A stretch of DNA of 64,000 nucleotides from Gaiellales bacterium (GTDB lineage: Bacteria > Actinomycetota > Thermoleophilia > Gaiellales > JAICJC01): assembly GCA_035473255.1 (NCBI GenBank), contig DATIOK010000130.1, positions 1,211 through 65,210 on the forward strand. The letters are read 5' to 3'. Made by a program: the position numbers and the translations under genes. Below are positions 5,319-62,795 of this stretch, one piece after another; the first letter of the stretch is position 1; each line of letters begins with the position of its first letter. The notes below the pieces were generated by a model that worked only from the letters and a program-made list of their open reading frames with translations, was not told the origin of the DNA and did no database searches.

Positions 5319-5391
5319 GCCGACGTAGCTCAGCTGGTAGAGCACATCACTCGTAATGATGGGGTCGGGAGTTCGAGTCTCCCCGTCGGCT
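5319..5391 (+). tRNA. tRNA-Thr (anticodon CGT)
   Basis: Hand-folded cloverleaf: acceptor GCCGACG/CGTCGGC, D-arm GCTC..GAGC, anticodon stem CATCA/TGATG with loop CTCGTAA, T-arm GGGAG TTCGAGT CTCCC. Confidence 0.95.
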
Positions 5392-6644: not shown

Positions 6645-7004
6645 CTACCCGGTGGCCACCCACACAACCAGGATCGTGGTCGTGCCGTCGTGGCCGTCCA
6701 TGCCGTAGTGGTGGAACAGCTGCTCCTCCTCGCTCGGCGAGAGGCTCTCGTCGGCGCTGATGTTGGGCGCGTTGTTGACCTGATCGGCAGTGAACGCAAC
6801 CCGGATCTTCTCGCCCTCGATCTCCGCACCCTCGACCGGCACGAAGTGCAGCTTGGTGCCGAAGCGCCCGCCGCTGACCAGCAGGAATGCCGCCTCGCTC
6901 GTGCGCTCGTCGGCGTAGAGGTCCTCGGCTCGTCCCAGATGCGTGCCGCCGACGTCGATCACCTCGCGCTCGCGCATGATGTGCAGATCAGCTGTACCCG
7001 GCAT
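6645..7004 (-). CDS. PRC-barrel domain protein
   Basis: Tail of ORF 6645..7217 from the ATG at 7004: MPGTADLHIMREREVIDVGGTHLGRAEDLY... The layout is typical of a small PRC-barrel protein. Confidence 0.7.
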   Translation of the reverse strand: MPGTADLHIMREREVIDVGGTHLGRAEDLYADERTSEAAFLLVSGGRFGTKLHFVPVEGAEIEGEKIRVAFTADQVNNAPNISADESLSPSEEEQLFHHYGMDGHDGTTTILVVWVATG

Positions 7005-7080
7005 GTGAACCCCCTTCGTGAGCAGATGGTGGTGGCGCCAGCCTAGATCAATCATCAGCGCTCTGCGAGACTGCGTGGCC

Positions 7081-7794
7081 GTGAACGACGCCGCGATCAG
7101 CATCCGCGATCTGGTGGTCGACCGCGGCGGGCACCGTGTGCTCGACGGTGTGTCGGTGGAGGTGGCCGCCGGCCGCATCACCGGGCTGCTAGGTCCCAGC
7201 GGATGCGGCAAGTCCACGCTGATGCGCTCGATCGTCGGCGTGCAGATCGTCGCCTCCGGCCGGGTCGACGTGCTGGGCCTGCCGGCCGGGGCGCCCGGCC
7301 TGCGCTCGGACGTCGGCTACGTCACTCAGGCGCCGTCGGTCTACCTCGACCTGACCGCCCGCCAGAACCTCGACTACTTCGCGCGCGTGCTCGACGCACC
7401 CGCCCAGCGCGTGGCCGAGGCGATCGCGTCCGTCGACCTGGCCTCCAGCGCCGACCGGCCGGTCGGCAGCCTCTCCGGCGGCCAGCGGGCGCGCGTGTCG
7501 CTGGCCACCGCGCTGCTCAGCCGGCCTCGGCTGCTGGTGCTGGACGAGCCCACCGTCGGCCTCGATCCGGTGCTGCGCGGCGAGCTCTGGGCCGGCTTCC
7601 GCGACCTGGCCGACGCCGGCACCACGCTGCTCGTGAGCAGCCACGTGATGGACGAGGCCGACCGCTGCGACGACATCGTGCTGATGCGCGACGGCGCCAT
7701 CCTGGCGGCGACTGCGCGCGAGCAGCTCTTGACCGAGACCGGCGCCGACGGTGTCGAGCAGGCCTTCCTGCGCCTGGTCGGTGCGGGCTCGTGA
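7081..7794 (+). CDS. ABC transporter ATP-binding protein
   Basis: Walker A GPSGCGKST, signature LSGGQRARV, Walker B LLVLDEPT. The GTG at 7081 is preferred over the track start at 7018. Confidence 0.9.
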   Translation: MNDAAISIRDLVVDRGGHRVLDGVSVEVAAGRITGLLGPSGCGKSTLMRSIVGVQIVASGRVDVLGLPAGAPGLRSDVGYVTQAPSVYLDLTARQNLDYFARVLDAPAQRVAEAIASVDLASSADRPVGSLSGGQRARVSLATALLSRPRLLVLDEPTVGLDPVLRGELWAGFRDLADAGTTLLVSSHVMDEADRCDDIVLMRDGAILAATAREQLLTETGADGVEQAFLRLVGAGS

Positions 7795-9147: not shown

Positions 9148-10653
9148 CTAGAACCACTTGGTGTAGATCGGGTCCGGCACCGGCACCGCGTGGTCGGCCG
9201 GCGTGCCGTGAAACAGCGACGTGATGCCCTTCGACCAGGCCTTCGCGCGGTCGGTCAGCTGCCGGTCGTCGGTCTGCATGCGCCCGCGGGTCACGATCAC
9301 ACCCAGATCGCCGCCCTTGTAGCGGTACTCGTCGGTGCCGTAGACGCGCAGGTAGAAGGCCTCGTCGTCATGTCCGACCGTGTGCCACGTGGTCACCAGC
9401 CGCACGAACTCGATGCTGCCGTCCTCGCGCATCTGCCAGAGCCCGCTGGACGGGGCGCGGGTGATCCTCTCGACCGCGTCGTCGGTCTGCTTCAGCACCA
9501 GCTGGCTCCATTCGTCGTAGGTCTCCCACCGCTTCTGCAGCTTCTTCAGGTCGACCTCCCAGTCCACGTCCAGGAACTCGAGCAGGTGGAACAGGAACAG
9601 CGGCGCCCCGCCGTACTTCGACGTGAGCAGGTTGGTGAGCGGGCTGGCGCCGGAGATGCGCGGGTTGATCTCGCCCAGGTAGACCTCGCCGCTGCCGTTC
9701 TCGACCAGGAAGTCGACGCAGAAGACGCCGCTGTAGCCGTGCGCGTAGAGCGTGTCGCCGAGCTTGCGCGCCATCGCCCGGATCGAATCGCGCGTCGCCT
9801 TGTCGAACACGCCGGGAAACACGTCGTTGCCGCACCAGCCACCGCGGTAGGGGGTCAGCTCCTCGAAGCCGGTGATGTCGGTCTGGATCGGCCCCACCAG
9901 CGTGCCGTGCCTGGTGGCGCAGGCCTCCACCGTGCCCGGCAGGTGCTCGATCCGGCGCATGATCTTGAGCTCCTCGCCCTCGAGCTTCTCGGAGTGCTCG
10001 TCCCACTGCTCCTCGTTCGTGATGAAGAACGTGGTGCGGCCGGAGTCGCCGTAGGGCGTCTGCACGACCAGGTCGGAGCCGAGCTTTGCCTTGCGGGCGC
10101 GCTCCATCAGCTGCTTGAAGCTCTTGGCCCGGGCCAGCACGTTGGGCGCGCACTCGATGCCGGCCTCGCCGGCCAGCTGCGTGGTCGTGATCTTGGAATC
10201 GACGTGCTCGCGCAGCGCCCGCGGCGGCAGCGCGATGTCGAGCCCCAGCTCGCCGGCCAGCTCCTCGGTGTCGGAGTCGAACATGACGAACAGCACCTTG
10301 CCCCCGCCCCGTGCGTGCACGCGGTCGGCCACCTGCTTGTGGCCAAGCAGGTAGGTGTTCACGTCCTCGAACGAGCCGAAGTCGCGGGCCCCCTCGCTGT
10401 GCGGCACGAACACGTGCGGGTGGTGGCCGTCGAACGAGTCGAAGTAGGTGATGTACTCGAACGCCCCCACCCACTGGTCGATGCCGAGCACGTTGTAGGC
10501 GGTCGGGGAGACGAAGTAGATGGGCGTGCGGCTGGAGCGGGCGAACTGGTAGACGTCGTTGAGGCCGCGCAGCTTCGGCCGTGCCGAGCGCTTCGCCACA
10601 ATCCCCTTGCCAGGTGTCACCGGCGGTGTCCCCCTGTTGACGCCATCCGGCAA
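9148..10653 (-). CDS. ATP-grasp family ligase with pre-ATP-grasp N-domain (PGM1-like peptide ligase type)
   Basis: 501-aa ORF. It carries ATP-grasp signatures (LVVQTPYGDSGRTTFF, CVDFLVENGSGEVYLGEINPRISGASP). Only 10 bp upstream of the GST gene. Confidence 0.75.
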   Translation of the reverse strand: MPDGVNRGTPPVTPGKGIVAKRSARPKLRGLNDVYQFARSSRTPIYFVSPTAYNVLGIDQWVGAFEYITYFDSFDGHHPHVFVPHSEGARDFGSFEDVNTYLLGHKQVADRVHARGGGKVLFVMFDSDTEELAGELGLDIALPPRALREHVDSKITTTQLAGEAGIECAPNVLARAKSFKQLMERARKAKLGSDLVVQTPYGDSGRTTFFITNEEQWDEHSEKLEGEELKIMRRIEHLPGTVEACATRHGTLVGPIQTDITGFEELTPYRGGWCGNDVFPGVFDKATRDSIRAMARKLGDTLYAHGYSGVFCVDFLVENGSGEVYLGEINPRISGASPLTNLLTSKYGGAPLFLFHLLEFLDVDWEVDLKKLQKRWETYDEWSQLVLKQTDDAVERITRAPSSGLWQMREDGSIEFVRLVTTWHTVGHDDEAFYLRVYGTDEYRYKGGDLGVIVTRGRMQTDDRQLTDRAKAWSKGITSLFHGTPADHAVPVPDPIYTKWF

Positions 10654-10696: not shown

Positions 10697-11818
10697 TCAG
10701 GCGAAGATCACCTGAGGCGTGTGCGGGATCTCCCGCTCGCGCTGCAAGAGCGGCGGCATCAGCACCCGCGTGTCGCGCAGCCGCTGGCCGTTCTCGGCGT
10801 CGGCCATGCGCACCGTCCAGACGTCGTCGGGCCACAGCAGCCGCACGCTGCGCTCGCGTGTGTCGTAACGGGCCGTGTACACCGTGCCCCACGTGTGTTC
10901 CGCCGAGTTGCGCTGCACCGGCTCGCTCAGGAACACCTGCTCCAGCCGGTCGAGGGTCATCGCCGGGTCGGCCAGGGCGTCGGCCAGCACCGCCTCCCGC
11001 CGCTCCGTCTCTGTCAGCGCCGCGTGCTCGGGCCACTCGGTGGCTCCCTGCCGGTTGCCGGCACAGAGGCCGCCGTGCTCGATCACCGGCGCCCGATCCG
11101 GCGCCACCCGCACCAGCGCCGCCTGGCCAGAGGCGTCCACCAGGGCGATGTTGTAGGACAGGTTGACCGGCACCGCCGCCACAGCCTCGAGCGCCTGCGG
11201 CACGTCCGCGCACTGCTCCAGGATGTAGCGCAGCAGCAGCGTCACCGCGAAGCCGCGGCCGACCGCGCGGCGCCCGCCGAAGGCCAGCGCCACCGCCAGG
11301 CCGTCCTCGTTGACGCCGTCCAGCGCGCCCCACAGGCAATCGCTCATCGCCATCGTGCGCCGGGTCGAGATGGTCGTGGTCAGCAGCGTCGTTTCGCACA
11401 GGGCCGGGGCGTAGTCGTAGCTGCGCAGGAGCGACGGGTTGCCGTCGCGCGTCCAGGCCGCCAGCGAGCAGGCCGCCAGGAACGGCGGCGGGTCCCACAG
11501 CGATAGGAACCGTGCCTCCAGGTCGCCGCCGCCGACCAGGTCGACCAGGCCCTCGTAGGCGGGCACCAGCTCGGGGACGTGCGTGCGCACGGCCCGCAGG
11601 CAGCCGGCGTACGACGATCGCTCCTGTTCGCCGTCGCGCAGGAACCAGCGCCGGTAGGCGGGCCACCACAGGTCGAACAGCTCGCGCAGCCTCTGGCCCG
11701 GTCGCTCCTCGACGACCGAGCGGAAGGTGACGGCCGTGGCGCGCGGCCCGTCGTCCTCCCCGCGGCGGGGCACATCGGCGCTCATCCCCATATTGTACTT
11801 GTGCACCCGGCCGATCAC
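10697..11818 (-). CDS. C45-family Ntn hydrolase / acyl-CoA:6-APA acyltransferase-like protein
   Basis: 373-aa ORF with a C45-like core (CSLAAW, GVNEDGLAVAL, NIALVDASG). Start is uncertain: GTG 11818, ATG 11791 or ATG 11785. Confidence 0.65.
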   Translation of the reverse strand: MIGRVHKYNMGMSADVPRRGEDDGPRATAVTFRSVVEERPGQRLRELFDLWWPAYRRWFLRDGEQERSSYAGCLRAVRTHVPELVPAYEGLVDLVGGGDLEARFLSLWDPPPFLAACSLAAWTRDGNPSLLRSYDYAPALCETTLLTTTISTRRTMAMSDCLWGALDGVNEDGLAVALAFGGRRAVGRGFAVTLLLRYILEQCADVPQALEAVAAVPVNLSYNIALVDASGQAALVRVAPDRAPVIEHGGLCAGNRQGATEWPEHAALTETERREAVLADALADPAMTLDRLEQVFLSEPVQRNSAEHTWGTVYTARYDTRERSVRLLWPDDVWTVRMADAENGQRLRDTRVLMPPLLQREREIPHTPQVIFA

Positions 11819-11859
11819 GCCCTCGACGCGGTGACCGAAAGGCTCACTAGCATGCGTCG

Positions 11860-13299
11860 ATGCGACTGGAGGAGTACGCGGCGCACGACGCTCTGGCGCT
11901 GGCAGAGCTGGTGCGGGAGGGGCAGGTGACGCCGGCCGAGCTGGCCCATCTGGCCGTGCGCGGGGCGGAGCGGACCGAGCCTCGCCTGGGCGCGATTGCG
12001 GGGCTGTATGACGATGCGGTGGAGTCGGCAGAGGCCGCGGAGCCGGGGCCGTTTCACGGCGTCCCGGTGCTGCTGAAGGATCTGTTCCACGGCGACGCCG
12101 GGCGGGCCACCGAGGCCGGCAGCCGCCTGGCCGAGGGATGGGTGGCGCAGGTGCAGTCGGAGCTGGTGCGACGGGTGCGGGCTTGCGGCATGGTGCCGGT
12201 CGGCCGCGCCACCACCTCCGAGTTCGGGGTGATGGGCACCACCGAGACGGTCGCCTGCGGCCCCACCAGCACGCCCTGGAGCGGTGACCACATGGCCGGC
12301 GGCTCCAGCGGCGGATCCGGCGCCGCGGTGGGCGCGGGAATCGTGCCGATCGCGACCGGCTCGGACGGCGGCGGCTCGATCAGGATCCCGGCATCGGCCT
12401 GCGGCGTGGTCGGCCTGAAGACCTCGCGGGGTCGTGTCACCTGGGCTCCGGCCGCGGGCGAGCCGCTGCTGGGCTGGGCGGTGCACCACGTGCTGACCCG
12501 GTCGCTGCGCGACACCGCCGCCTGCCTGGACGAGCTGGCCACGCCGTACCCCGGCGAGTCCTTCACACTGACGGGTCCGCCCGACGGCGGCTGGCTCGAC
12601 CAGCTGCAGCTGCAGCCCGGCCCGCTGCGCATCGCCTTCTGCTGGCAGCCGTGGTCCGGCGCCGAGGTGGTGGCCGAGATCCGGGCCGCCTGCGAGGCGA
12701 CGGCGACGCTGCTGTCCGGTCTCGGGCACGAGCTGATCGAGGCCTCGCCGCAGTTCTCCTGGGAGCAGTTCCTGGACGCGATGACCGTGATCTGGTCGTC
12801 CACCACCGCCCAGACCGTCGACGGGTTCGCCCAGGCGGTGGGCCGCGAGCCGAGCCCCGACAACCTCGAGCTCCCCACCTTCCGGATGGTCGAGTTCGGC
12901 CGCGCGGTGAAGGTCGGCGAGCTGCTGAACGCGATCGACTCGGCGGGATATGTGAGCCGGCAGGTGCGCGGCTTCTTCGAGGACTACGACGTGCTGCTGA
13001 CCCCTACGCTGGGAGCGCTGCCCGCCAGGCTCGGCACCTACCGGCCGGACGAGGAGCTCGAGCCCAAGCAGCTGTTCGGCTCGTGGGCGCACCTGGAGTC
13101 GTTCCTGCCGGTGTTCAACGCCTCCGGCCAGCCGGCCATCAGCCTGCCGCTGCACATGAGCGAGCAGGGGCTGCCGATCGGGATGCAGCTGGTCGGCCGG
13201 GTCGGGGCCGAAGCCACGCTGCTGCGCGTTTCCGCCCAGTTGGAGCAGGCGCTGCCGTGGGCGGCGCGGGTGCCGCCCCTCCACGTTTCCGATGGCTAG
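11860..13299 (+). CDS. amidase (amidase-signature family)
   Basis: 479-aa ORF with the AS motif GGSSGGSGAAVGAG and a catalytic Ser/Lys context. Divergent from the C45 gene across 41 bp. Confidence 0.9.
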   Translation: MRLEEYAAHDALALAELVREGQVTPAELAHLAVRGAERTEPRLGAIAGLYDDAVESAEAAEPGPFHGVPVLLKDLFHGDAGRATEAGSRLAEGWVAQVQSELVRRVRACGMVPVGRATTSEFGVMGTTETVACGPTSTPWSGDHMAGGSSGGSGAAVGAGIVPIATGSDGGGSIRIPASACGVVGLKTSRGRVTWAPAAGEPLLGWAVHHVLTRSLRDTAACLDELATPYPGESFTLTGPPDGGWLDQLQLQPGPLRIAFCWQPWSGAEVVAEIRAACEATATLLSGLGHELIEASPQFSWEQFLDAMTVIWSSTTAQTVDGFAQAVGREPSPDNLELPTFRMVEFGRAVKVGELLNAIDSAGYVSRQVRGFFEDYDVLLTPTLGALPARLGTYRPDEELEPKQLFGSWAHLESFLPVFNASGQPAISLPLHMSEQGLPIGMQLVGRVGAEATLLRVSAQLEQALPWAARVPPLHVSDG

Positions 13300-55796: not shown

Positions 55797-58394
55797 ATGG
55801 CTTCTGCCGATCGTCTCCGTGCGCTTGTCGACCTGTCCCGGGCGCTCTCCTCCAGCCTGGATCTGGAGGACGTGCTGCGGTGTTTCACGGCCCACGCGAC
55901 GGCCGTGAACGGCGCGGCGGCGACCGCAGTCTCGCTGTGGGAGCGGGACCGCGATGTGCTGATCACCCTCACCGATTACGAGAACCACATCGTTGGCCAG
56001 ATCGCCGAGGCCGATGTCGAGTACGCCCTGGGCGACTTCCCGCTCTCGCGCCGCGTGATGGAGGAGCGGAGCGCGGTCGTGGTGCGCGCCTCCGACCCCG
56101 AGTGCGACCCTCACGAGCGCAGCGTCCTGCTCAAGGAGGGCTACGAGACGATGCTGATGCTGCCGCTGGTGTCGCGCGGCGAGACGATCGGGCTGATGGA
56201 GTTCGCCGACGTCACCGATCGCTCGTGGGACCCGGAGATGGAGTTCTTCGGCGCGCTCACCGACGTGGTTGCGGCCGCTGTCCACAACGCGGTGCTGCAC
56301 GATGAGTTCCGCGAGGCCCAGGAGCGCTACCGGGTGCTGGTCGAGAACCTGCCCGCGATCACCTACGTCGATCTGGCCGGCAGCGGCGATCCCCTCTACG
56401 TCAGCCCTCAGATCGAGGAGCTGATGGGCATCCCCGCCGACGAGTGGCTGGACGGCTTCAACGGCTGGGAGCGGAGGATGCATCCCGACGACCGCCACAC
56501 CATCGCCGAGTACAGGCGCACGGTCGAGACCGGCGAGCCCTACTCCGCGTCCTACCGGATGCAGGGACTGGACGGCCGCATGCGCTGGTTCCGCGACGAC
56601 GCGGCCGCCGTGCGCGACGAGACCGGCACCCCCCGGTTCATCCAGGGCGTGATCTTCGATGTGACCAAGCAGAAGGAGGCCGAGGGCGCGCTGCAGGCCT
56701 CCGAGGCGCGCTTCCGCGAGATGCTCGAGAACGTGCGCCTGGCCGCGGTCGTCACCGACCTCGAGGGCCGCATCACGTTCTGCAACGAGTACCTGGCCGA
56801 ACTTTCGGGCTGGTGGGAGGACGAGCTGCTGGGCCGCATCTGGTCGGAGACCTTCACTCCACCCGACGAGCTGGAGATGGAACAGCGCGCCCAGCGCGGG
56901 ATCGAGCGCGGCAGCGTGATCGCCCACTACGAGAGCTCGATCCTGACCCGCTCCGGCGAGCGGCGGCTGTTCTCCTGGAACAACACCCTGCTCCGCGACG
57001 CCAACGGCGACGTGGTCGGCCAGGCGTCGGTGGGCGAGGACATCACCGATCGCCGGCGCGCCGAGCACGAGCTGGAGCGGCTTGCCTTCCACGACCCGCT
57101 GACCGGCCTGCCGAACCGGATCCTGTTCCACGAGCACCTCGATGTGGCGCTGGCGCGCGCACAGCGGGCGGGCTGCGGCGTCGCCGTGCTGTACGTCGAC
57201 CTGGACGACTTCAAGCTGGTGAATGACAGCTTCGGGCACAACGCCGGTGACGAGCTGCTGTGCGAGGTGGCGGCGCGGCTGACGGGATCGACCCGCGCCG
57301 CCGACGTGGTTGCCCGCCAGGGCGGCGACGAGTTCCTGATCCTGATCGCCGACGTCGAGACCAACGAGGGCGGTGACGTCGTCGACGTGGGGGACGTCGC
57401 CCGCCGCGTCGCCGAGCAGGTGCGCGCGGAGCTACAGCGGCCGCTGATGCTGGCTGACACCGAGATCTACACCAGCGCCAGCCTCGGGATCAGCCTCTAC
57501 CCGGCCGACGCACCCGACGCGGAGAGCCTGCTCAAGCACGCTGACATCGCGATGTATAAGGCCAAGGAGTCCGGCCGCGACGGCTACCAGCTGTTCTCCT
57601 CCACCGGCCACGATCCGCGCGCCCAGCTGTCGATGGCCGGCCGTCTGCGGCGGGCGGTCGAGCGCGATCAGCTGATGCTGCACTACCAGCCGCTGGTGTC
57701 GCTGGCGACCGGCGAGTACGTCGGAGCGGAGGCGCTGCTGCGCTGGCAGGACGATCAGAACGGCCTGGTGATGCCGGGCGACTTCATCCCGCTGGCCGAG
57801 CGCACCGGGCTGATCGGCCCGATCTCGGAGTGGGTGATCGAGGAGGCCTGCCGCCAGAGCGCCGAGTGGCGCTCGATGGGGCTCGACCTGTACGTGTCGG
57901 TGAACCTGCCGGCGGTGTTCTGGCAGCCGACCGCCATGCGGCAGGTGCTGGCCACGATCGAGCGGTTCGGCCTGTCCGCCGACCGCATGATGGTCGAGAT
58001 CACCGAGTCGACCGTGATGGCCGACGCGCTGCGCTCGGAGCCGATCATCGCCGAGCTCCACGAGCGCGGCCTGCGGCTGGCGATCGACGACTTCGGCACC
58101 GGGCACTCCTCGCTGGCGCGGCTGAACCAGATGCTGGTGACCACCCTCAAGATCGACCGGTCGTTCATCGCCGACCTGCCGGGCGACCCCAGCGCGGCCG
58201 TGCTCGTGGCGACCATCATCCAGCTCGCCCACAACCTCGGTCTGCATCCGCTGGCGGAGGGCATCGAGACCGAGGAGCAGCGCACGTTCCTGGTCGAGAA
58301 CGGCTGCCAGCTGGGCCAGGGCTTCCTCTTCTCCAAGGCCGTGCCTGCAGACCGGATCGTGGCGCTGCACAACGCCATGCGCGACGCCGCCTGA
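55797..58394 (+). CDS. GAF-PAS-PAS-GGDEF-EAL signalling protein
   Basis: 865-aa ORF with an N-terminal GAF domain, two PAS segments, RQGGDEF, and EALLRW plus DDFGTGHSSL. Confidence 0.9.
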   Translation: MASADRLRALVDLSRALSSSLDLEDVLRCFTAHATAVNGAAATAVSLWERDRDVLITLTDYENHIVGQIAEADVEYALGDFPLSRRVMEERSAVVVRASDPECDPHERSVLLKEGYETMLMLPLVSRGETIGLMEFADVTDRSWDPEMEFFGALTDVVAAAVHNAVLHDEFREAQERYRVLVENLPAITYVDLAGSGDPLYVSPQIEELMGIPADEWLDGFNGWERRMHPDDRHTIAEYRRTVETGEPYSASYRMQGLDGRMRWFRDDAAAVRDETGTPRFIQGVIFDVTKQKEAEGALQASEARFREMLENVRLAAVVTDLEGRITFCNEYLAELSGWWEDELLGRIWSETFTPPDELEMEQRAQRGIERGSVIAHYESSILTRSGERRLFSWNNTLLRDANGDVVGQASVGEDITDRRRAEHELERLAFHDPLTGLPNRILFHEHLDVALARAQRAGCGVAVLYVDLDDFKLVNDSFGHNAGDELLCEVAARLTGSTRAADVVARQGGDEFLILIADVETNEGGDVVDVGDVARRVAEQVRAELQRPLMLADTEIYTSASLGISLYPADAPDAESLLKHADIAMYKAKESGRDGYQLFSSTGHDPRAQLSMAGRLRRAVERDQLMLHYQPLVSLATGEYVGAEALLRWQDDQNGLVMPGDFIPLAERTGLIGPISEWVIEEACRQSAEWRSMGLDLYVSVNLPAVFWQPTAMRQVLATIERFGLSADRMMVEITESTVMADALRSEPIIAELHERGLRLAIDDFGTGHSSLARLNQMLVTTLKIDRSFIADLPGDPSAAVLVATIIQLAHNLGLHPLAEGIETEEQRTFLVENGCQLGQGFLFSKAVPADRIVALHNAMRDAA

Positions 58395-58408: not shown

Positions 58409-59032
58409 ATGCCGATCACGATCACCGATGCTGCGCTTCGGCGCGTGCTCGAGGTGCGCGCCCGCGAGCACGAGCCCGAGGGGCTGGCGCTGTGGGTCGA
58501 GATCGTGGGCGTGGCGGGTGCCGCCTACCAGTACGACATGTCGTTCCTGCGCCACGACGAGATCGACGAGACGGACGTGGTGGTGACCAGCGGCGGGCTG
58601 CAGGTCGTGGTGCCGCGGCTGGATGCGCCCGCCCTCGACGAGGCCACGATCGCGATCGACGAGCGGCTGGGCGGGGGGCTCGTGATCGAGAACCCCAAGC
58701 TGCCGGCACAGACCAGCCCGGCCCTGCGCCTGCCGGAGCTGCCCGAGCTGCAGGGCGATGCCGCGGCCCGCGTGCGCCAGGTGCTGGAGCTGCAGGTGAA
58801 CCCGGCGATCGCGTCGCACGGCGGCCACGCCGAGCTGGTGGCGGTCGAGGGTGACAGCGCCTTCCTGCGCCTCGGCGGCGGCTGCGTCGGCTGCGGCATG
58901 GTGGCGGTGACGCTGAAGCAGGGCGTCGAGTCGGCGATCCGGGCCGGGGTGCCCGAGATCACCCGCGTGGTGGATGTGACCGACCACGCATCGGGCACCA
59001 ACCCGTACTACGAGCCCACCGCGCACGGCTAG
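58409..59032 (+). CDS. NfuA-like Fe-S cluster carrier (degenerate A-type domain plus NifU C-terminal domain)
   Basis: ATG at 58409 (MPITITDAALRRVLEV) with the Nfu motif GGGCVGCGM near the C-terminus. Confidence 0.8.
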   Translation: MPITITDAALRRVLEVRAREHEPEGLALWVEIVGVAGAAYQYDMSFLRHDEIDETDVVVTSGGLQVVVPRLDAPALDEATIAIDERLGGGLVIENPKLPAQTSPALRLPELPELQGDAAARVRQVLELQVNPAIASHGGHAELVAVEGDSAFLRLGGGCVGCGMVAVTLKQGVESAIRAGVPEITRVVDVTDHASGTNPYYEPTAHG

Positions 59033-59036
59033 CTAT

Positions 59037-59052
59037 CGGGGCGAAAGCCCCG
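59037..59052. terminator. bidirectional GC hairpin with GAAA tetraloop
   Basis: CGGGGC-GAAA-GCCCCG, 5 nt after the nfu-like stop. Confidence 0.5.
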
Positions 59053-59063
59053 TTGTCACCGTC

Positions 59064-59245
59064 GAATACTCGCAAAATGCGCGAATTATCCGCTTGCACA
59101 CCATCCGGCGGTGCCATAGGTTTCCTTCTGCGCCGCTCAGGGCAGCCGAGTAGGTTGAACCCGGTCGGACGGATCGTAGAGGCGACTCGAAAGTTCGTTC
59201 GGTCGGTGGACGAAAGGCAAGCCGGGGCGGCGAATCTTTGGTCCC
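59064..59245. repeat. 182-nt repeat, copy 1 (3' flank of adenine deaminase gene)
   Basis: Gap-free alignment to 60975-61156 (156/182 identical by hand count), in the same orientation. It ends 2 nt from the ade stop codon. Confidence 0.9.
59187..59202. promoter_or_regulatory. LexA-box-like palindrome inside repeat copy 1
   Basis: TCGAAAGTTCGTTCGG versus the actinobacterial SOS box TCGAAC-N4-GTTCGA (2 mismatches). Confidence 0.2.
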
Positions 59246-59247
59246 GT

Positions 59248-60945
59248 TCAGTCTTCCGCGGCCAGGCTCACCAGCCTGAACTGATCCACGTCCACCAGTC
59301 CCTGGTCGGTGATCTTGAGCGACGGGATCACCGACAGCGCCAGGAAGCTCATTGCGTGGAACGGCGCCTCGACGGTACAGCCGAGCGCCACGGCCGCATC
59401 TGACAGCGCCTCGCTCTGTGCCAGCACCACGTCCAGCGGCTGGTCGCTGAGCAGCCCAGCCACCGGCAGCGGCAGCTCCGCTCGCACGCCGCGGCCCTCG
59501 ACGGCCACCATGCCTCCGCCCAGCTCGGCCAGGCGTCCGATCGCGCGCGCCATGTCGCCGTCGTCCACGCCCACGCAGACGATGTTGTGCGCGTCGTGGG
59601 CGACGGTGCTCGCGATCGCCCCGCGCTGCAGCCCGAAGCCCTGAACGAATCCGAGCCCGACCCGGCCGGTGCCCAGGTGCCGCTCCGCGACCGCGATCTT
59701 GGCCAGGTTTCGGGCCGGGTCGGCCACGGCCAGCCCGTCCCGGACGGTCGCCGGCATCACCAGAGCCTCCGTCACGATCTGGCCCGGCACCAGGCCGATC
59801 ACGCGGATCGAACCGCCGTCGTCCGTCGTGTGCAGGTCGTTGGGCGAGATCGGCTGGATCCGCACGGTGCGCCGCGCCCACTCCGGCACCGGCGGCGCGA
59901 CCGGCGGCGCCGGCACCAGCCCGTCCTTGAGCACCACGTCCGGCAGGAACCGCTCGAGGTCGGGCAGCACCAGCAGATCGGCTCGCCGCCCCGGCGCGAT
60001 CGCGCCGCGGTCGCCCAATCCGTGCCAGGCGGCCGCGTTGCAGGAGGCCATCGCCAGCGCGTCGCGGGCATCCACCCCCGACTCCACCGCCCGGCGCACC
60101 ATCGAGTTGACATGGCCCTCGCGGGCGATATGCCCGGGCTCGCGGTCATCGGTGCAGAACGCGATCCGCCCGGGGCCGAACTCGTGCACGAGCGGCAGCA
60201 GCGCGTCCAGGTTCCGGGCACCCGACGCCTCGCGGATCAGCAGCCACATCCCCGCCCGCAGCCGCTCGCGGCCCTCCTGCTGCGTCGTCGCCTCGTGATC
60301 CGATCCGATCCCGGCGGCGGCGTACGCCTGCAGCCGGCGGCCGAGCACACCGGGGGCGTGGCCGTCGACGTGCTTCGCTCCCCCCAGGCCCAGCTTTGCG
60401 AGCTCGTCGGGATCACCGGCGATCACGCCCGGGAAGTTCATCATCTCGGCCAGGCCCAGCACGCTTCGGCGGCGCAGCAGCCCCTCCAGGTCACCTGTGG
60501 TGAGCGCCCGCCGCGGCGACTCGAACCGCGATGCCGGCACGCACGACGGGGCCATGAAGAACACGTCCAGCGACAGGTCGGCGCAGGCGTCGGCCAGCCA
60601 GTGCACGCCGTCGGTGCCGAGCACGTTCGCGATCTCGTGCGGGTCGGCGACCACCGACGTGGTGCCGAACGGCAGCACCAGCTTGGCGAACTCGTCCACC
60701 AGCAGCATCGATGACTCGAGGTGCAGGTGCGCATCGATCAGGCCGGGGACGACGTATCGCCCGCCGGCGTCCAGCGTGTCGCGGCCGCGGTACTCTCCGA
60801 CGCCGGCGATCCAGCCGTCGCACACGGCCACGTCGGCCTCGAGCCACTCGCGGGTGTACACCGACAGCACCCGGCCGCCGCGCACGACCAGGTCGGCGGG
60901 CTCGTCGCCGCGTGCCACCGCCAGCCGTCGCGCCAGGTCGGTCAT
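59248..60945 (-). CDS. ade: adenine deaminase
   Basis: 565-aa ORF with the amidohydrolase motif PGLIDAHLHLESS and the typical Ade family length and layout. Confidence 0.9.
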   Translation of the reverse strand: MTDLARRLAVARGDEPADLVVRGGRVLSVYTREWLEADVAVCDGWIAGVGEYRGRDTLDAGGRYVVPGLIDAHLHLESSMLLVDEFAKLVLPFGTTSVVADPHEIANVLGTDGVHWLADACADLSLDVFFMAPSCVPASRFESPRRALTTGDLEGLLRRRSVLGLAEMMNFPGVIAGDPDELAKLGLGGAKHVDGHAPGVLGRRLQAYAAAGIGSDHEATTQQEGRERLRAGMWLLIREASGARNLDALLPLVHEFGPGRIAFCTDDREPGHIAREGHVNSMVRRAVESGVDARDALAMASCNAAAWHGLGDRGAIAPGRRADLLVLPDLERFLPDVVLKDGLVPAPPVAPPVPEWARRTVRIQPISPNDLHTTDDGGSIRVIGLVPGQIVTEALVMPATVRDGLAVADPARNLAKIAVAERHLGTGRVGLGFVQGFGLQRGAIASTVAHDAHNIVCVGVDDGDMARAIGRLAELGGGMVAVEGRGVRAELPLPVAGLLSDQPLDVVLAQSEALSDAAVALGCTVEAPFHAMSFLALSVIPSLKITDQGLVDVDQFRLVSLAAED

Positions 60946-60953
60946 GGCCGCGA

Positions 60954-60959
60954 AGTCTA
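60954..60959 (-). promoter_or_regulatory. candidate -10 hexamer TAGACT for a (near-)leaderless ade transcript
   Basis: A TANNNT hexamer lies 8 nt upstream of the ATG, and there is no SD sequence before the start. Confidence 0.3.
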
Positions 60960-60974
60960 CGCGTTTTCTATTCT

Positions 60975-61156
60975 GAATACTCGCAAAGAGCGCGAATTAT
61001 GCGGTTGCAGAGCGGGTCTCGGTGCCATAGGTTTGCTTCTGCGCCGCTGAGGGCAGCCGAGTAGGTTGAAGCCAGGCGGACGGGCCGTAGAGGCGACTCG
61101 AAAGTTCGTTCGACTGGGGGACCAAAGGCCAGCCGGAGCGGCGAATCTTTGGTCCC
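60975..61156. repeat. 182-nt repeat, copy 2 (5' flank of ade / 3' flank of permease gene)
   Basis: See copy 1. It starts 29 nt upstream of the ade start and contains the hairpin GGGACCAAAG-N19-CTTTGGTCCC. Confidence 0.9.
61098..61113. promoter_or_regulatory. LexA-box-like palindrome inside repeat copy 2
   Basis: TCGAAAGTTCGTTCGA versus TCGAAC-N4-GTTCGA (1 mismatch). Confidence 0.25.
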
Positions 61157-61217
61157 AAACGACCAACGGCCCCCGCCGCAGCCGGAGCTGCGACGAGGGC
61201 CGTCCTCGTCTCTGGCG

Positions 61218-62795
61218 TCAGTCGCCCGTCGCCGCGTCCGGCAGGTCGACCGTCCGGATCGGGCCCGTGAACCAGTTCTTGGCCCACAGGTGCCACGACA
61301 GGAACGAGTAGATCGCAACCGCCCCCACGATCAGCGGGCAGTAGTTGATCAGCCCGTTGTTCCAGGCAAAGTCCGCGTTGCCGGGGACGCCTCCGGGAGC
61401 GGTGGGCAGGAAGGCGATGATGCACACCACGAACACCTCGATCACCGCTATCGGGCACATCCACTTGTACTTGTTTCCGAGTGTCCACGGCCCGGTGACG
61501 AAGGAGTCCCCCATCCTCCATCTCAGGAAGATCGGGATGGCGTAGGCGATATAAAGGCCGACCACCGTGATCGATGCCAGCGCGTAGAATGCGATCGGCA
61601 CCCTGGACGCGTTGCCGTACAGCGACGGCAGGGTCACGATCGCGCAGATCGCGGCCATGCCCAACGTTGCGTTCCGCGGCGCCCGGTTGGGAGCCACCTT
61701 CGACCAGATCTGGTGCCCGGGGACCGCGCGGTCGCGGCTGAACGCGTACATCATCCGCGAGGCGCTGGTGAGGCCGGAGCCGCCGCAGAAGAACTGGCCG
61801 ATGGTCGAGATGATCATCACGGCTTTGAACCCGGCCAGGCCCAGCGCCGTCGCGAAGATGCCGATCGACGAGCCGGCGCCGTACGGGTTGCTGGTCGAGA
61901 TCACGTCGGCGTTCTTGACCGCGAACAGGAAGCACAGCAGCAGGATCCAGCCGCCGATCGCCGAGTAGAACACCGACCGCCACATGCCCTGCGCGGCCGC
62001 CTTGGCCGCGCCCGTGGTCTCCTCGGAGAGGTGGGCGGAGGCGTCGAAGCCGGTGATCGTGTACTGGGTCAGGATCACGCCCAGCGGCACCACGTAGAGG
62101 AAGAACTTGAGGCTGCTGGTGCCTCCCGAGAAGCCGGAGTTGTTGATCCAGTGCGTGAACACGAACGAGGCGCTCTGGTGGGATGTGGGCCCGAAGATCA
62201 GGATCAGCACGATGATCGCCGCACCCACCACGTGCCAGTAGGCGGAGGTGTTGTTCCAGATCGACAGGACGTGCGCCGGGAACAGGTTGATGAACACGTG
62301 CACGGCCAGGACGCAGAGGAAGATCAGGAAGATGTACTTGAGGTTGAACGCGTCGTAGCTGGTGTCGAACAGGCCGATCGTGTAGGACAGGAACGAGGCG
62401 CAGGCGTAGTCGACCGATGCCACCACGCCGACCAGGCCGACCAGGTTGAACCAGCCGGTGAACCATCCCCAGCTGGGGCCGCCCAGCTTGGACGCCCAGT
62501 AGTAGATGCCGCCTGCCGTGGGCATCGCCGAGACGACCTCGGCCATGCACAGAGCGATGATCAGAATGAAGGCGGAGACAACCGGCCACCCGATCGAGAC
62601 CATCACCGGTCCGCCGTTGTTCCAGGCCGCGAAGAAGTTCGTGAAGCAGCCTGCCAGGATCGAGATGATCGAGAAAGAGATCGCGAAGTTCGTGAAGCCG
62701 CCCCAGGAGCGTTCCAGCTCCTGCTTGTAGCCGAGCTCGGCGAGGAGCCGTTCGTCCTCGTTCAGCTGGGGGGCGCCCGGTGACGGGTCGCTCAT
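61218..62795 (-). CDS. APC-family amino acid/polyamine permease
   Basis: 525-aa ORF with 12 TM helices and an N-terminal amphipathic region LLAELGYKQELERSWGGFTNFAISFS. SD GGAGGA upstream. Confidence 0.9.
   Translation of the reverse strand: MSDPSPGAPQLNEDERLLAELGYKQELERSWGGFTNFAISFSIISILAGCFTNFFAAWNNGGPVMVSIGWPVVSAFILIIALCMAEVVSAMPTAGGIYYWASKLGGPSWGWFTGWFNLVGLVGVVASVDYACASFLSYTIGLFDTSYDAFNLKYIFLIFLCVLAVHVFINLFPAHVLSIWNNTSAYWHVVGAAIIVLILIFGPTSHQSASFVFTHWINNSGFSGGTSSLKFFLYVVPLGVILTQYTITGFDASAHLSEETTGAAKAAAQGMWRSVFYSAIGGWILLLCFLFAVKNADVISTSNPYGAGSSIGIFATALGLAGFKAVMIISTIGQFFCGGSGLTSASRMMYAFSRDRAVPGHQIWSKVAPNRAPRNATLGMAAICAIVTLPSLYGNASRVPIAFYALASITVVGLYIAYAIPIFLRWRMGDSFVTGPWTLGNKYKWMCPIAVIEVFVVCIIAFLPTAPGGVPGNADFAWNNGLINYCPLIVGAVAIYSFLSWHLWAKNWFTGPIRTVDLPDAATGD

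Follow-up and report, generated by a model that had tools for sequence, protein, structure and literature searches.

The 64,000-nucleotide stretch of Gaiellales DNA analysed here, called the window in what follows, contains two direct repeats of 182 nt that bracket the adenine deaminase gene ade. Each repeat is probably a complete small structured-RNA gene on the plus strand, and the two belong to a multicopy structured RNA family that, on well-supported grounds, is previously undescribed and is absent from Rfam 15.

The two repeats

The copies lie in the same orientation at 59064–59245 (copy 1) and 60975–61156 (copy 2). An initial annotation of the sequence had aligned them by hand, and a repeat search together with our own pairwise comparison gives the same result: 156 of the 182 positions are identical and there are no indels. 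The blastn comparison of copy 1 with copy 2 returns E = 1e-57, and outside the repeats the identities fall to chance (11/40 and 10/40 in the two flanks). The differences cluster at element positions 36–45, as had been noted, and this cluster is the spacer of the predicted promoter described below; positions 46–96 carry only two substitutions, and positions 112–138 and 164–182 are identical between the copies. The distances to ade were also given correctly, with copy 1 ending 2 nt from its stop codon (59248–59250) and copy 2 starting 29 nt from its ATG (60945), and the element is non-coding as proposed: its reading frames hold stop codons, and its substitutions track base pairs rather than codons. 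A TCGAA-N6-TTCGA palindrome reported for both copies is perfect in copy 2, but copy 1 reads TCGAA-N6-TTCGG. The GC content of the element is 60–62%, against 71% for the window.

No third copy was found in the 64-kb window by blastn, by nhmmer or by a covariance model run with its filters off. The covariance model scores copy 1 with 141.4 bits (E = 2e-41) and copy 2 with 140.5 bits, and the next best position with 15 bits.

A covarying rod on the plus strand

The RNA folds into a conserved, covarying rod. The consensus was computed with RNAalifold from an alignment of 122 distinct sequences (A1), and it is an irregular rod closed by helix P1, which pairs the 5' end (CGCCGYYN) with GRCGGCG near the 3' end. 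Three 3-bp helices follow (P2a–P2c), with invariant purine-rich loops between them (GAGUAGG/AA and GAA/GGGA), then P3, a long covarying hairpin in which eight pairs are changed on both sides, and finally P4, a 3-bp tip helix that is capped by a GNRA tetraloop and has a 5'-GUA/GAA-3' loop at its flank. Altogether 98.0% of the 4011 cells in the rod are paired. The initial annotation had suggested an alignment of all copies as a check for covariation, and it is found: 13 pairs have changes on both sides, in 257 cells. None of 500 shuffles attains these values, a control that overstates the significance because the aligned sequences are related; this does not apply to the controls in which the partners were slid by 1–3 columns, which pair in 26–45% of cells, nor to the counts of pair types. 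For P1 these counts are CG:79/UA:40, CG:70/UA:27/UG:24 and CG:51/GC:32. The tip loop is GNRA in every sequence (GCGA, GUGA, GCAA or GAGA), and the P4 stem swaps between GAG/CUC and GGG/CCC, an A-U to G-C switch of one pair.

The same pattern is visible within the window. The changes in P3 from copy 1 to copy 2 keep the pairing (G-C to A-U, G-U to G-C, A-U to G-U and U-G to C-G), with one pair lost. The rod is the minimum-free-energy (MFE) fold of copy 1 and lies near the minimum in 102 of the 122 sequences.

The orientation of the predicted promoter and the G-U pairs place the RNA on the plus strand. There are 418 G-U cells, including one G-U pair that is invariant in 122/122 sequences, so that reading the minus strand lowers the paired fraction from 98.0% to 87.7%. 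The folding energies agree: −70.5 and −78.6 kcal/mol on the plus strand compared with about −60 on the minus strand, an advantage of roughly 10–18 kcal/mol. A minus-strand RNA was rejected on the same two grounds, and with it the earlier suggestion that the element is a 3' untranslated region of ade or of the neighbouring permease gene, both of which are encoded on the strand opposite to the RNA.

A different structure had been drawn at first, a terminal hairpin GGGACCAAAG/CTTTGGTCCC. It can indeed be drawn in both window copies, but it is not the fold of the family: across the alignment it is 73.9% paired, has no covariation and uses nucleotides of P1, P2b and P2c, thus excluding the covarying helices. 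Its inner GCCG/CGGC stem is broken in 31 sequences, and the substitution assigned to the loop of GCCG-NNN-CGGC actually lies in P1, the covarying closing helix, where it changes U-G to U-A. The rod is more stable than the terminal hairpin in 117/122 sequences, and we rejected the hairpin as a conserved structure. Copy 2 is an exception in that its MFE fold is the terminal-hairpin form; a G-to-C change at column 95 (the C95 variant) makes the hairpin perfect there.

The 3' tail falls into two classes, AAUCUUUGGUCC in most copies and AAUCCUUUUAAC in about a quarter of them. We also searched for extra tertiary pairs or a pseudoknot by mutual information, and the top signals were clade effects. 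Specifically, position 3 of the GNRA loop (A1 column 67, window 59184) and the C in the GAAUC of the tail (column 119, window 59236) vary together, changing from G-C to A-U in 19 copies near DUF1989 genes and not in the NUDIX-type copies. This loop–tail pair holds in one clade and fails in another, and a tertiary contact is a less probable cause of the co-change than a clade effect.

Predicted operator and promoter

Upstream of the rod the element is organized like a promoter region. When 12 copies are aligned, variation covers the first 65 nt except for a few short blocks, and the sequence is near-invariant from CTGCGCCGC on; the hexamers TTGCA and TAnnnT are conserved, and the spacer between them is variable. 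The pattern TTGCnn-N17-TAnnnT, ending 6–7 nt before GCGCCG, is present in 122 of 127 unique upstream regions (121 with the 17-nt spacer), compared with 6 of 5000 random positions in the same loci. This argues that the RNA has its own promoter, which would be of the sigma-70 type and would start transcription 6–8 nt past the −10 box, that is, at about 59129 and 61040. A consensus promoter/terminator scanner found nothing; it applies E. coli-type criteria, which are too stringent to accept TTGCA/TAnnnT.

The best-conserved block in the 127 upstream regions is CGCAAAnTGCGnGAA; its core is an operator-like palindrome, with its centre some 53 nt ahead of the point where the RNA is predicted to start. 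Some relatives carry the perfect palindrome TTCGCGCA-N3-TGCGCGAA. In the window the composite operator pattern matches only at the two copies, with 0 matches expected by chance, and among the first 97 loci fetched, exact matches to the operator core occur only at the RNA's own promoters, giving no further regulon members. The site of copy 2 sits between the promoter of the divergent ade and that of copy 2. The same layout recurs elsewhere: divergent genes (ade, Peptidase_M55, MarR) start at a nearly uniform distance of about 95 nt from the RNA 5' end, which would place the operator between two back-to-back promoters. For ade this distance is constant across loci. The operator and promoter are common to all copies, which would presumably be switched on jointly, and we infer that one dimeric regulator co-controls all of them together with divergent genes such as ade. 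A candidate for this regulator is the divergently encoded MarR-type protein; the alternative is the neighbouring PhoB-like regulator.

Distribution and conservation

To see how widely the element occurs we scanned one genome per species for two invariant blocks, and checked all matches by nhmmer. The scan returned 87 stretches in about 53 metagenome-assembled genomes (MAGs), every one a confirmed copy, and all 87 carry the taxon labels Gaiellales, Thermoleophilia, Actinomycetota or uncultured Actinomycetes MAGs. There are at least 2–6 copies per MAG, a lower bound in that the scan covered only stretches that match the pattern. With a looser pattern of three blocks, at least 120 stretches were found on soil metagenome contigs, and the pooled total is about 280 copies with 219 distinct RNA sequences. 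On the question of copy number raised at the outset, there are many more copies in related genomes, and no more in the window.

An exact look-up of the window's ade protein gave no record; relatives of the window locus were reached through ade homologues, and those with a stated taxon are Gaiellales. On contigs with ade at 79–96% identity the order permease, ade, NifU is kept, and each has both copies in the same two gaps. Two contigs with ade at 73–74% identity, in other gene contexts, have no copy of the element. Between the window and the related contig L001, copies in corresponding positions are about 95% identical, as opposed to about 86% for paralogous copies, which means that the duplication is older than these species and that both copies have been maintained. 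In the syntenic relatives the RNA parts are better conserved than the neighbouring proteins.

In another relative, L002, the copies flanking ade (9785–10004 and 11812–12031) have identical RNA parts and identical 3' flanks, whereas the window and L001 keep position-specific variants; this suggests occasional gene conversion between paralogues. One 130-kb contig, CAVWLK010000087.1, carries six copies (L040:297-780 and 6808-7310; L022:1041-1247; L062:6391-6581). Two of its copies deviate: L040:588-780 (113 bits) is clearly degenerate and lacks the 5' strand of P1, and L040:297-474 (131 bits) is also off the consensus. These may be decaying paralogues.

Genomic settings

Genes around the related copies were called with a crude method based on GC content at third codon positions (GC3), clustered, and named by Pfam and NCBIfam. 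The copies fall into about seven conserved settings. The RNA lies between a NifU-like gene and a convergent ade, as copy 1 does (about 26–31 copies, with the NifU-like gene as the upstream neighbour in about 26 loci), or between a divergent ade and a convergent permease gene, as copy 2 does (about 24–32 copies). Elsewhere it stands between a MutT1-like NUDIX gene and a response-regulator gene of the OmpR type, best matched by PhoB and with a PhoR-like kinase gene near (about 50 copies), or 1–12 nt ahead of a MutT1-like NUDIX gene (16–18 copies). In a fifth setting a divergent Peptidase_M55 gene is followed by two tandem RNA genes with their own predicted promoters and, 18–23 nt on, by a DUF1989 gene (about 43 copies), and in a sixth a divergent MarR-family gene is followed by the RNA and, after about 45 nt, by a gene for a 66-aa membrane protein. 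A co-directional gene thus begins within 45 nt of the RNA in four of the settings, and in two settings the downstream gene is convergent.

These settings point to two arrangements. In the first the RNA would stand alone, bounded by terminators. A strong hairpin is found at the permease-side position in 26 of 26 distinct permease-convergent loci, and the window's example (61167–61202) is probably a two-way terminator, serving the RNA on the plus strand and the permease gene on the minus strand. On the side of copy 1, a hairpin in the last ade codons (59263–59278) is a candidate stop for transcription from that copy, and therefore the copy 1 RNA would overlap the ade 3' end; when 27 ade-convergent loci were folded, the relatives with a wider gap had an intergenic hairpin there instead. 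Hairpins also follow the distal tandem copies and the copies ahead of the response regulator. The U-tracts after these GC-rich downstream hairpins are weak. The response-regulator gene has its own TAnnnT box 6–10 nt before the ATG, conserved across loci, and the PhoB-like gene is for this reason probably leaderless with a promoter of its own. At L048:516-540, L053, L019, L073 and other regulator loci the box reads TACAAT, TACGAT or TAGCCT. At one further locus (L080) the PhoR-like kinase gene is convergent with the PhoB-like regulator gene.

In the second arrangement the RNA would serve as a 5' leader. No hairpin or −10 box intervenes between the modelled RNA and the NUDIX gene (1–12 nt) or the DUF1989 gene (18–23 nt), and the 66-aa gene is preceded, within its gap of about 45 nt, by a Shine–Dalgarno-like GAAGGG; these three genes are predicted to be transcribed through the RNA, there being no hairpin or −10 box ahead of them. 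The MarR loci (L083, L109, L111, L139, L154, L155, L158, L169, L201, L210 and L216; for example L109:519-640) have the MarR-family gene divergent from the RNA at about 78–99 nt and, 3' of the RNA, a hairpin, the GAAGGG box and a gene for a membrane protein of 55–66 aa. Both arrangements occur among the loci, and the two copies in the window are predicted to be of the stand-alone kind.

Interpretation and alternatives

Considering the fold, the predicted promoter and the many further copies together, the structured RNA proposed as one of several possibilities in the initial annotation is borne out, and we think it likely that the family consists of regulator-controlled RNA genes. The suggestion of a shared regulatory module was partly right: the same operator and promoter accompany all copies, but the module is not specific to genes for purine or amino-acid uptake, and it also adjoins the PhoB/PhoR-like two-component system and NUDIX, DUF1989, Peptidase_M55 and MarR genes.

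A mechanism can be outlined on this basis. A dimeric transcription factor would bind the palindrome centred near −53, and the sigma-70-type promoter (TTGCA, 17 nt, TAnnnT) would yield a rod RNA of about 115 nt, with all copies switched on together as sibling regulatory RNAs. In place of a simple antisense seed, the RNA would use its invariant loops to engage a single shared partner, which would be a protein or a small ligand. At loci without a terminator it would double as a 5' leader, coupling the NUDIX, DUF1989 and 66-aa membrane protein genes to the signal. Around ade, copy 2 would share its operator region with the divergent gene and end at the two-way terminator common with the permease gene, and copy 1 would start past the NfuA terminator and run head-on into the ade 3' end. 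Because the operator lies between ade and copy 2, the 5' end of ade could be under shared control, and with only 2 nt between copy 1 and the stop codon, transcription could converge on the 3' end, where it might, as a speculation, add antisense pressure or transcriptional interference. For trans-acting sibling RNAs that bind a partner, and are leaders at some loci, we see a chance close to even or slightly below.

Several points weigh against this interpretation, in addition to the relatedness of the aligned sequences mentioned above. The start and end of the RNA, and its expression itself, are read from sequence, and the 3' end is ambiguous, the candidates being P1 with the U-rich tail, the competing terminal hairpin and the downstream hairpins. 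The gene calls in the related loci are crude, and about seven conserved settings give few independent observations from which to argue about context. Further, the palindromic operator suits a MarR-like regulator better than the OmpR-type regulator next door, and a riboswitch aptamer would account for the invariant loops no less well than a site for a protein.

The last point leads to the strongest alternative, a new riboswitch-like cis-regulatory leader in which the rod is a metabolite aptamer. A ligand would shift the balance between the P1/P2 rod and a 3' hairpin (GGACGAAAGG...CUUUGGUCC, or GAAAGG/CCUUUU) and so set read-through or translation downstream or, in the case of ade, antisense transcription into the gene. 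The internal loops are invariant, the stems covary and P1 closes the element, a pattern of conservation like that of an aptamer; in every copy the alternative hairpin overlaps the strands of P2b and P2c and the 3' side of P1, and the NUDIX, DUF1989 and 66-aa genes follow with no space for a promoter of their own. Tandem copies occur, an arrangement known for riboswitches, and the DUF1989/urea-amidolyase-associated protein, NUDIX and permease neighbours resemble the gene associations of the ykkC type. However, every copy has its own predicted operator and promoter, the downstream copy in a tandem included, an arrangement unusual among riboswitches, and about half of the copies precede a terminator hairpin, beyond which the next gene is either convergent or has a −10 box to itself. 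The alternative hairpin has no covariation, is far weaker than the rod in 117/122 sequences and has no U-tract after it, and the mixed gene set names no ligand. We therefore rate this explanation as possible and clearly less probable than partner-binding sibling RNAs. A related reading seems to us rather doubtful: Gaiellales, and they alone, would have a new class of riboswitch or protein-sensing riboregulator, with the rod as its sensor, carried on a portable operator–promoter–sensor cassette. At some loci the cassette would be the 5' leader of the NUDIX, DUF1989 and small membrane protein genes, and at others a stand-alone RNA or one convergent to genes such as ade; one signal would then both activate sense genes and oppose convergent ones. 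It is unlikely, though well short of negligible, that the family acts by base pairing, with the tail (AAUCUUUGGUCC/AAUCCUUUUAAC) or the GAGUAGG loop pairing with regulon mRNAs in trans, much like Qrr, PrrF, LhrC and csRNA. Several copies, tandem pairs, a common regulator site and own terminators would all be expected of such small RNAs (sRNAs), one copy stands beside the PhoB/PhoR-like two-component system in about 50 loci, and one tail class resembles an anti-Shine–Dalgarno sequence (UCCUUU). Against this, nearly the entire RNA is conserved and paired, in place of a variable body with a single seed, the tail comes in two different sequence classes, and the unpaired invariant stretches are purine-rich, whereas the known Gram-positive anti-Shine–Dalgarno sRNAs have C/U-rich unpaired stretches.

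Explanations that treat the repeats as DNA elements fare much worse. A non-autonomous mobile element similar to a MITE (miniature inverted-repeat transposable element), or a REP-like (repetitive extragenic palindromic) repeat, would be multicopy, intergenic and about 180 nt long, and a GC content of 60% against 71% for the genome fits as well. But the ends (GAATACTCGC... and ...TTTGGTCCC) are not complementary, so there are no terminal inverted repeats, the flanks are unrelated and show no target duplications, and the copies are fixed at the same syntenic positions across species, with just 2–6 per genome. The element has no blastn match on plasmids, and viral contigs have no match to the three-block pattern. 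We give a mobile origin a very small chance. Two direct repeats around a single gene could also recombine, and the initial annotation considered both homologous arms that amplify or excise ade and a local duplication scar. This explanation, which makes the repeats functionless, is the least probable of all: both copies are conserved in all syntenic relatives, ade is present between them at every locus that retains them, the RNA parts are conserved beyond the neighbouring proteins with substitutions that preserve base pairs, and about 53 species carry the RNA unit at unrelated loci as well.

In soils the Gaiellales rank with the most abundant lineages of actinobacteria, and almost none of them is cultured. 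The finding of a structured RNA family in this poorly studied and abundant lineage is well supported. In general kind the family is a familiar one, and we see a non-trivial chance of a new class that senses a ligand; should a metabolite bind to the invariant loops, the family would be a new riboswitch class. The RNA offers an entry point to a regulon that would link the PhoB/PhoR-like system, NUDIX, DUF1989, Peptidase_M55, adenine deaminase and permease genes. For annotation, two conserved and seemingly empty intergenic regions around ade are explained, and the strand on which a transcript would be sought is corrected to plus.

Comparison with known systems

The statement in the initial annotation that the element matches no known riboswitch or sRNA is supported by the Rfam 15 covariance models, which return nothing credible: at gathering thresholds the whole window contains only a tRNA, and for three different copies a cut-off of E ≤ 10 gives hits at chance level only (miRNA, snoRNA, sul1 and Mcr7 models). 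A literature search on Gaiellales non-coding and regulatory RNAs, and on DUF1989 together with riboswitches, found nothing relevant. By eye the RNA has some likeness to ykkC, c-di-GMP-I, ZTP and 5S rRNA loop E, which no covariance model backs and which we treat as coincidence.

In its organization the family is close to sibling sRNAs with regulator-dependent promoters, such as Qrr1–5/LuxO, PrrF1–2/Fur, LhrC1–5/LisR and the csRNAs/CiaR. Like these, it comprises small RNA genes that are nearly identical to one another, number several per genome and lie partly in tandem, each with its own predicted promoter and the same regulator site, and one copy beside a two-component system. Unlike them, the RNA is conserved over its full length as a covarying rod with invariant loops, more reminiscent of ligand or protein binding, and some copies would serve as 5' leaders. 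With the Rfam 15 models, neither the window nor the three copies show any similarity to the Qrr, PrrF, LhrC or csRNA families.

Some riboswitches also yield stand-alone or antisense RNAs, for example the SAM riboswitches SreA and SreB of Listeria and the B12 riboswitch that controls AspocR. Both they and the Gaiellales RNA have a conserved structure that is closed by P1 and with which a 3' hairpin competes, and both occur ahead of genes as well as facing convergent ones. The differences are that every Gaiellales copy has its own predicted operator and promoter, and that its competing hairpin lacks covariation and is much weaker than the rod. A similar comparison applies to ykkC (guanidine-I, with ppGpp, PRPP and nucleoside-diphosphate subtypes; RF00442), which shares the neighbours DUF1989/urea-amidolyase-associated protein, NUDIX hydrolase and permease. 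DUF1989 and NUDIX genes directly follow some copies; ade and the permease gene are convergent, and many copies stand alone. The GGGAC-RAAAG-GCC stretch of the Gaiellales RNA recalls the conserved GGGA...AAAAGCC of ykkC, which we take to be coincidence. Unlike ykkC, which consists of P1-P1a-P1b-P2 and P3, the RNA is a single rod without a separate P3 hairpin, and RF00442 has no match at E ≤ 10 in the three copies.

The GUA/GAA loop of P4 presumably resembles a bulged-G (sarcin–ricin or loop E) module with a GNRA cap. As in such modules, the 5'-GUA/GAA-3' loop adjoins a 3-bp GNRA-capped stem, the loop is invariant and the stem covaries. This likeness is a local motif at the level of sequence and has no bearing on function.

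Neighbouring genes and feature coordinates

The coordinates of the two copies and of the features around them are collected in Table 1. Pfam upholds the original identities of ade and the permease gene, and the GAAA-loop hairpin reported beyond copy 1 is confirmed; most simply, it is the terminator of the NfuA/NifU-like gene.

Table 1. Features of the window at and around the two RNA genes; RNA, promoter and operator entries are predictions.
Feature	Position	Strand	Description
NfuA/NifU-like gene	58409–59032	+	Named by Pfam and NCBIfam; directly upstream of copy 1
Hairpin CGGGGC-GAAA-GCCCCG, then TTGT	59037–59052		Separates the NfuA/NifU-like gene from copy 1
Copy 1 operator-like palindrome	59067–59085	+	Core CGCA-N3-TGCG at 59071–59081, then GAA and an A/T-rich stretch
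Copy 1 promoter	59094–59122	+	−35 TTGCAC 59094–59099, 17-nt spacer, −10 TAGGTT 59117–59122
Copy 1 RNA, about 115 nt	59129–59245	+	P1, 59131–59138 with 59225–59232
Copy 1 hairpin P3/P4	59161–59206		GNRA loop GCGA 59182–59185, with adjoining GUA/GAA internal loop
Copy 1 3' tail AAUCUUUGGUCCC	59233–59245	+	
Hairpin CAGGCT-CACC-AGCCTG	59263–59278	+	In the last ade codons, 18 nt past copy 1
ade, adenine deaminase	59248–60945	−	Pfam Adenine_deam_C and Amidohydro_1; convergent with copy 1, divergent from copy 2
Copy 2 operator-like site	60978–60996	+	Core CGCAAAGAGCG at 60982–60992, 1 mismatch to the palindrome
Copy 2 promoter	61005–61033	+	−35 TTGCAG 61005–61010, 17-nt spacer, −10 TAGGTT 61028–61033
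Copy 2 RNA	61040–61156	+	P1, 61042–61049 with 61136–61143; P3/P4, 61072–61117
GC-rich hairpin	61167–61202		Between copy 2 and the permease stop; no strand assigned
Permease stop codon	61218–61220		
Amino acid permease gene	61218–62795	−	AA_permease_2; NCBIfam 2A0304 subfamily; convergent with copy 2

The ade gene is probably leaderless. A −10-like box, TAGACT, lies on the minus strand at 60954–60959, 8 nt before the ATG (60943–60945), and in orthologous loci it is kept as TAGACT or TACACT 7–8 nt ahead of the ATG. A gene for a large signalling protein with GAF, PAS, GGDEF and EAL domains (55797–58394) lies upstream of the NfuA-like gene and is kept in the syntenic relatives; we found no link between this gene and the RNA. 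The tRNA gene that is the window's sole Rfam match at gathering thresholds lies at 5319–5391 and scores 69.9 bits.

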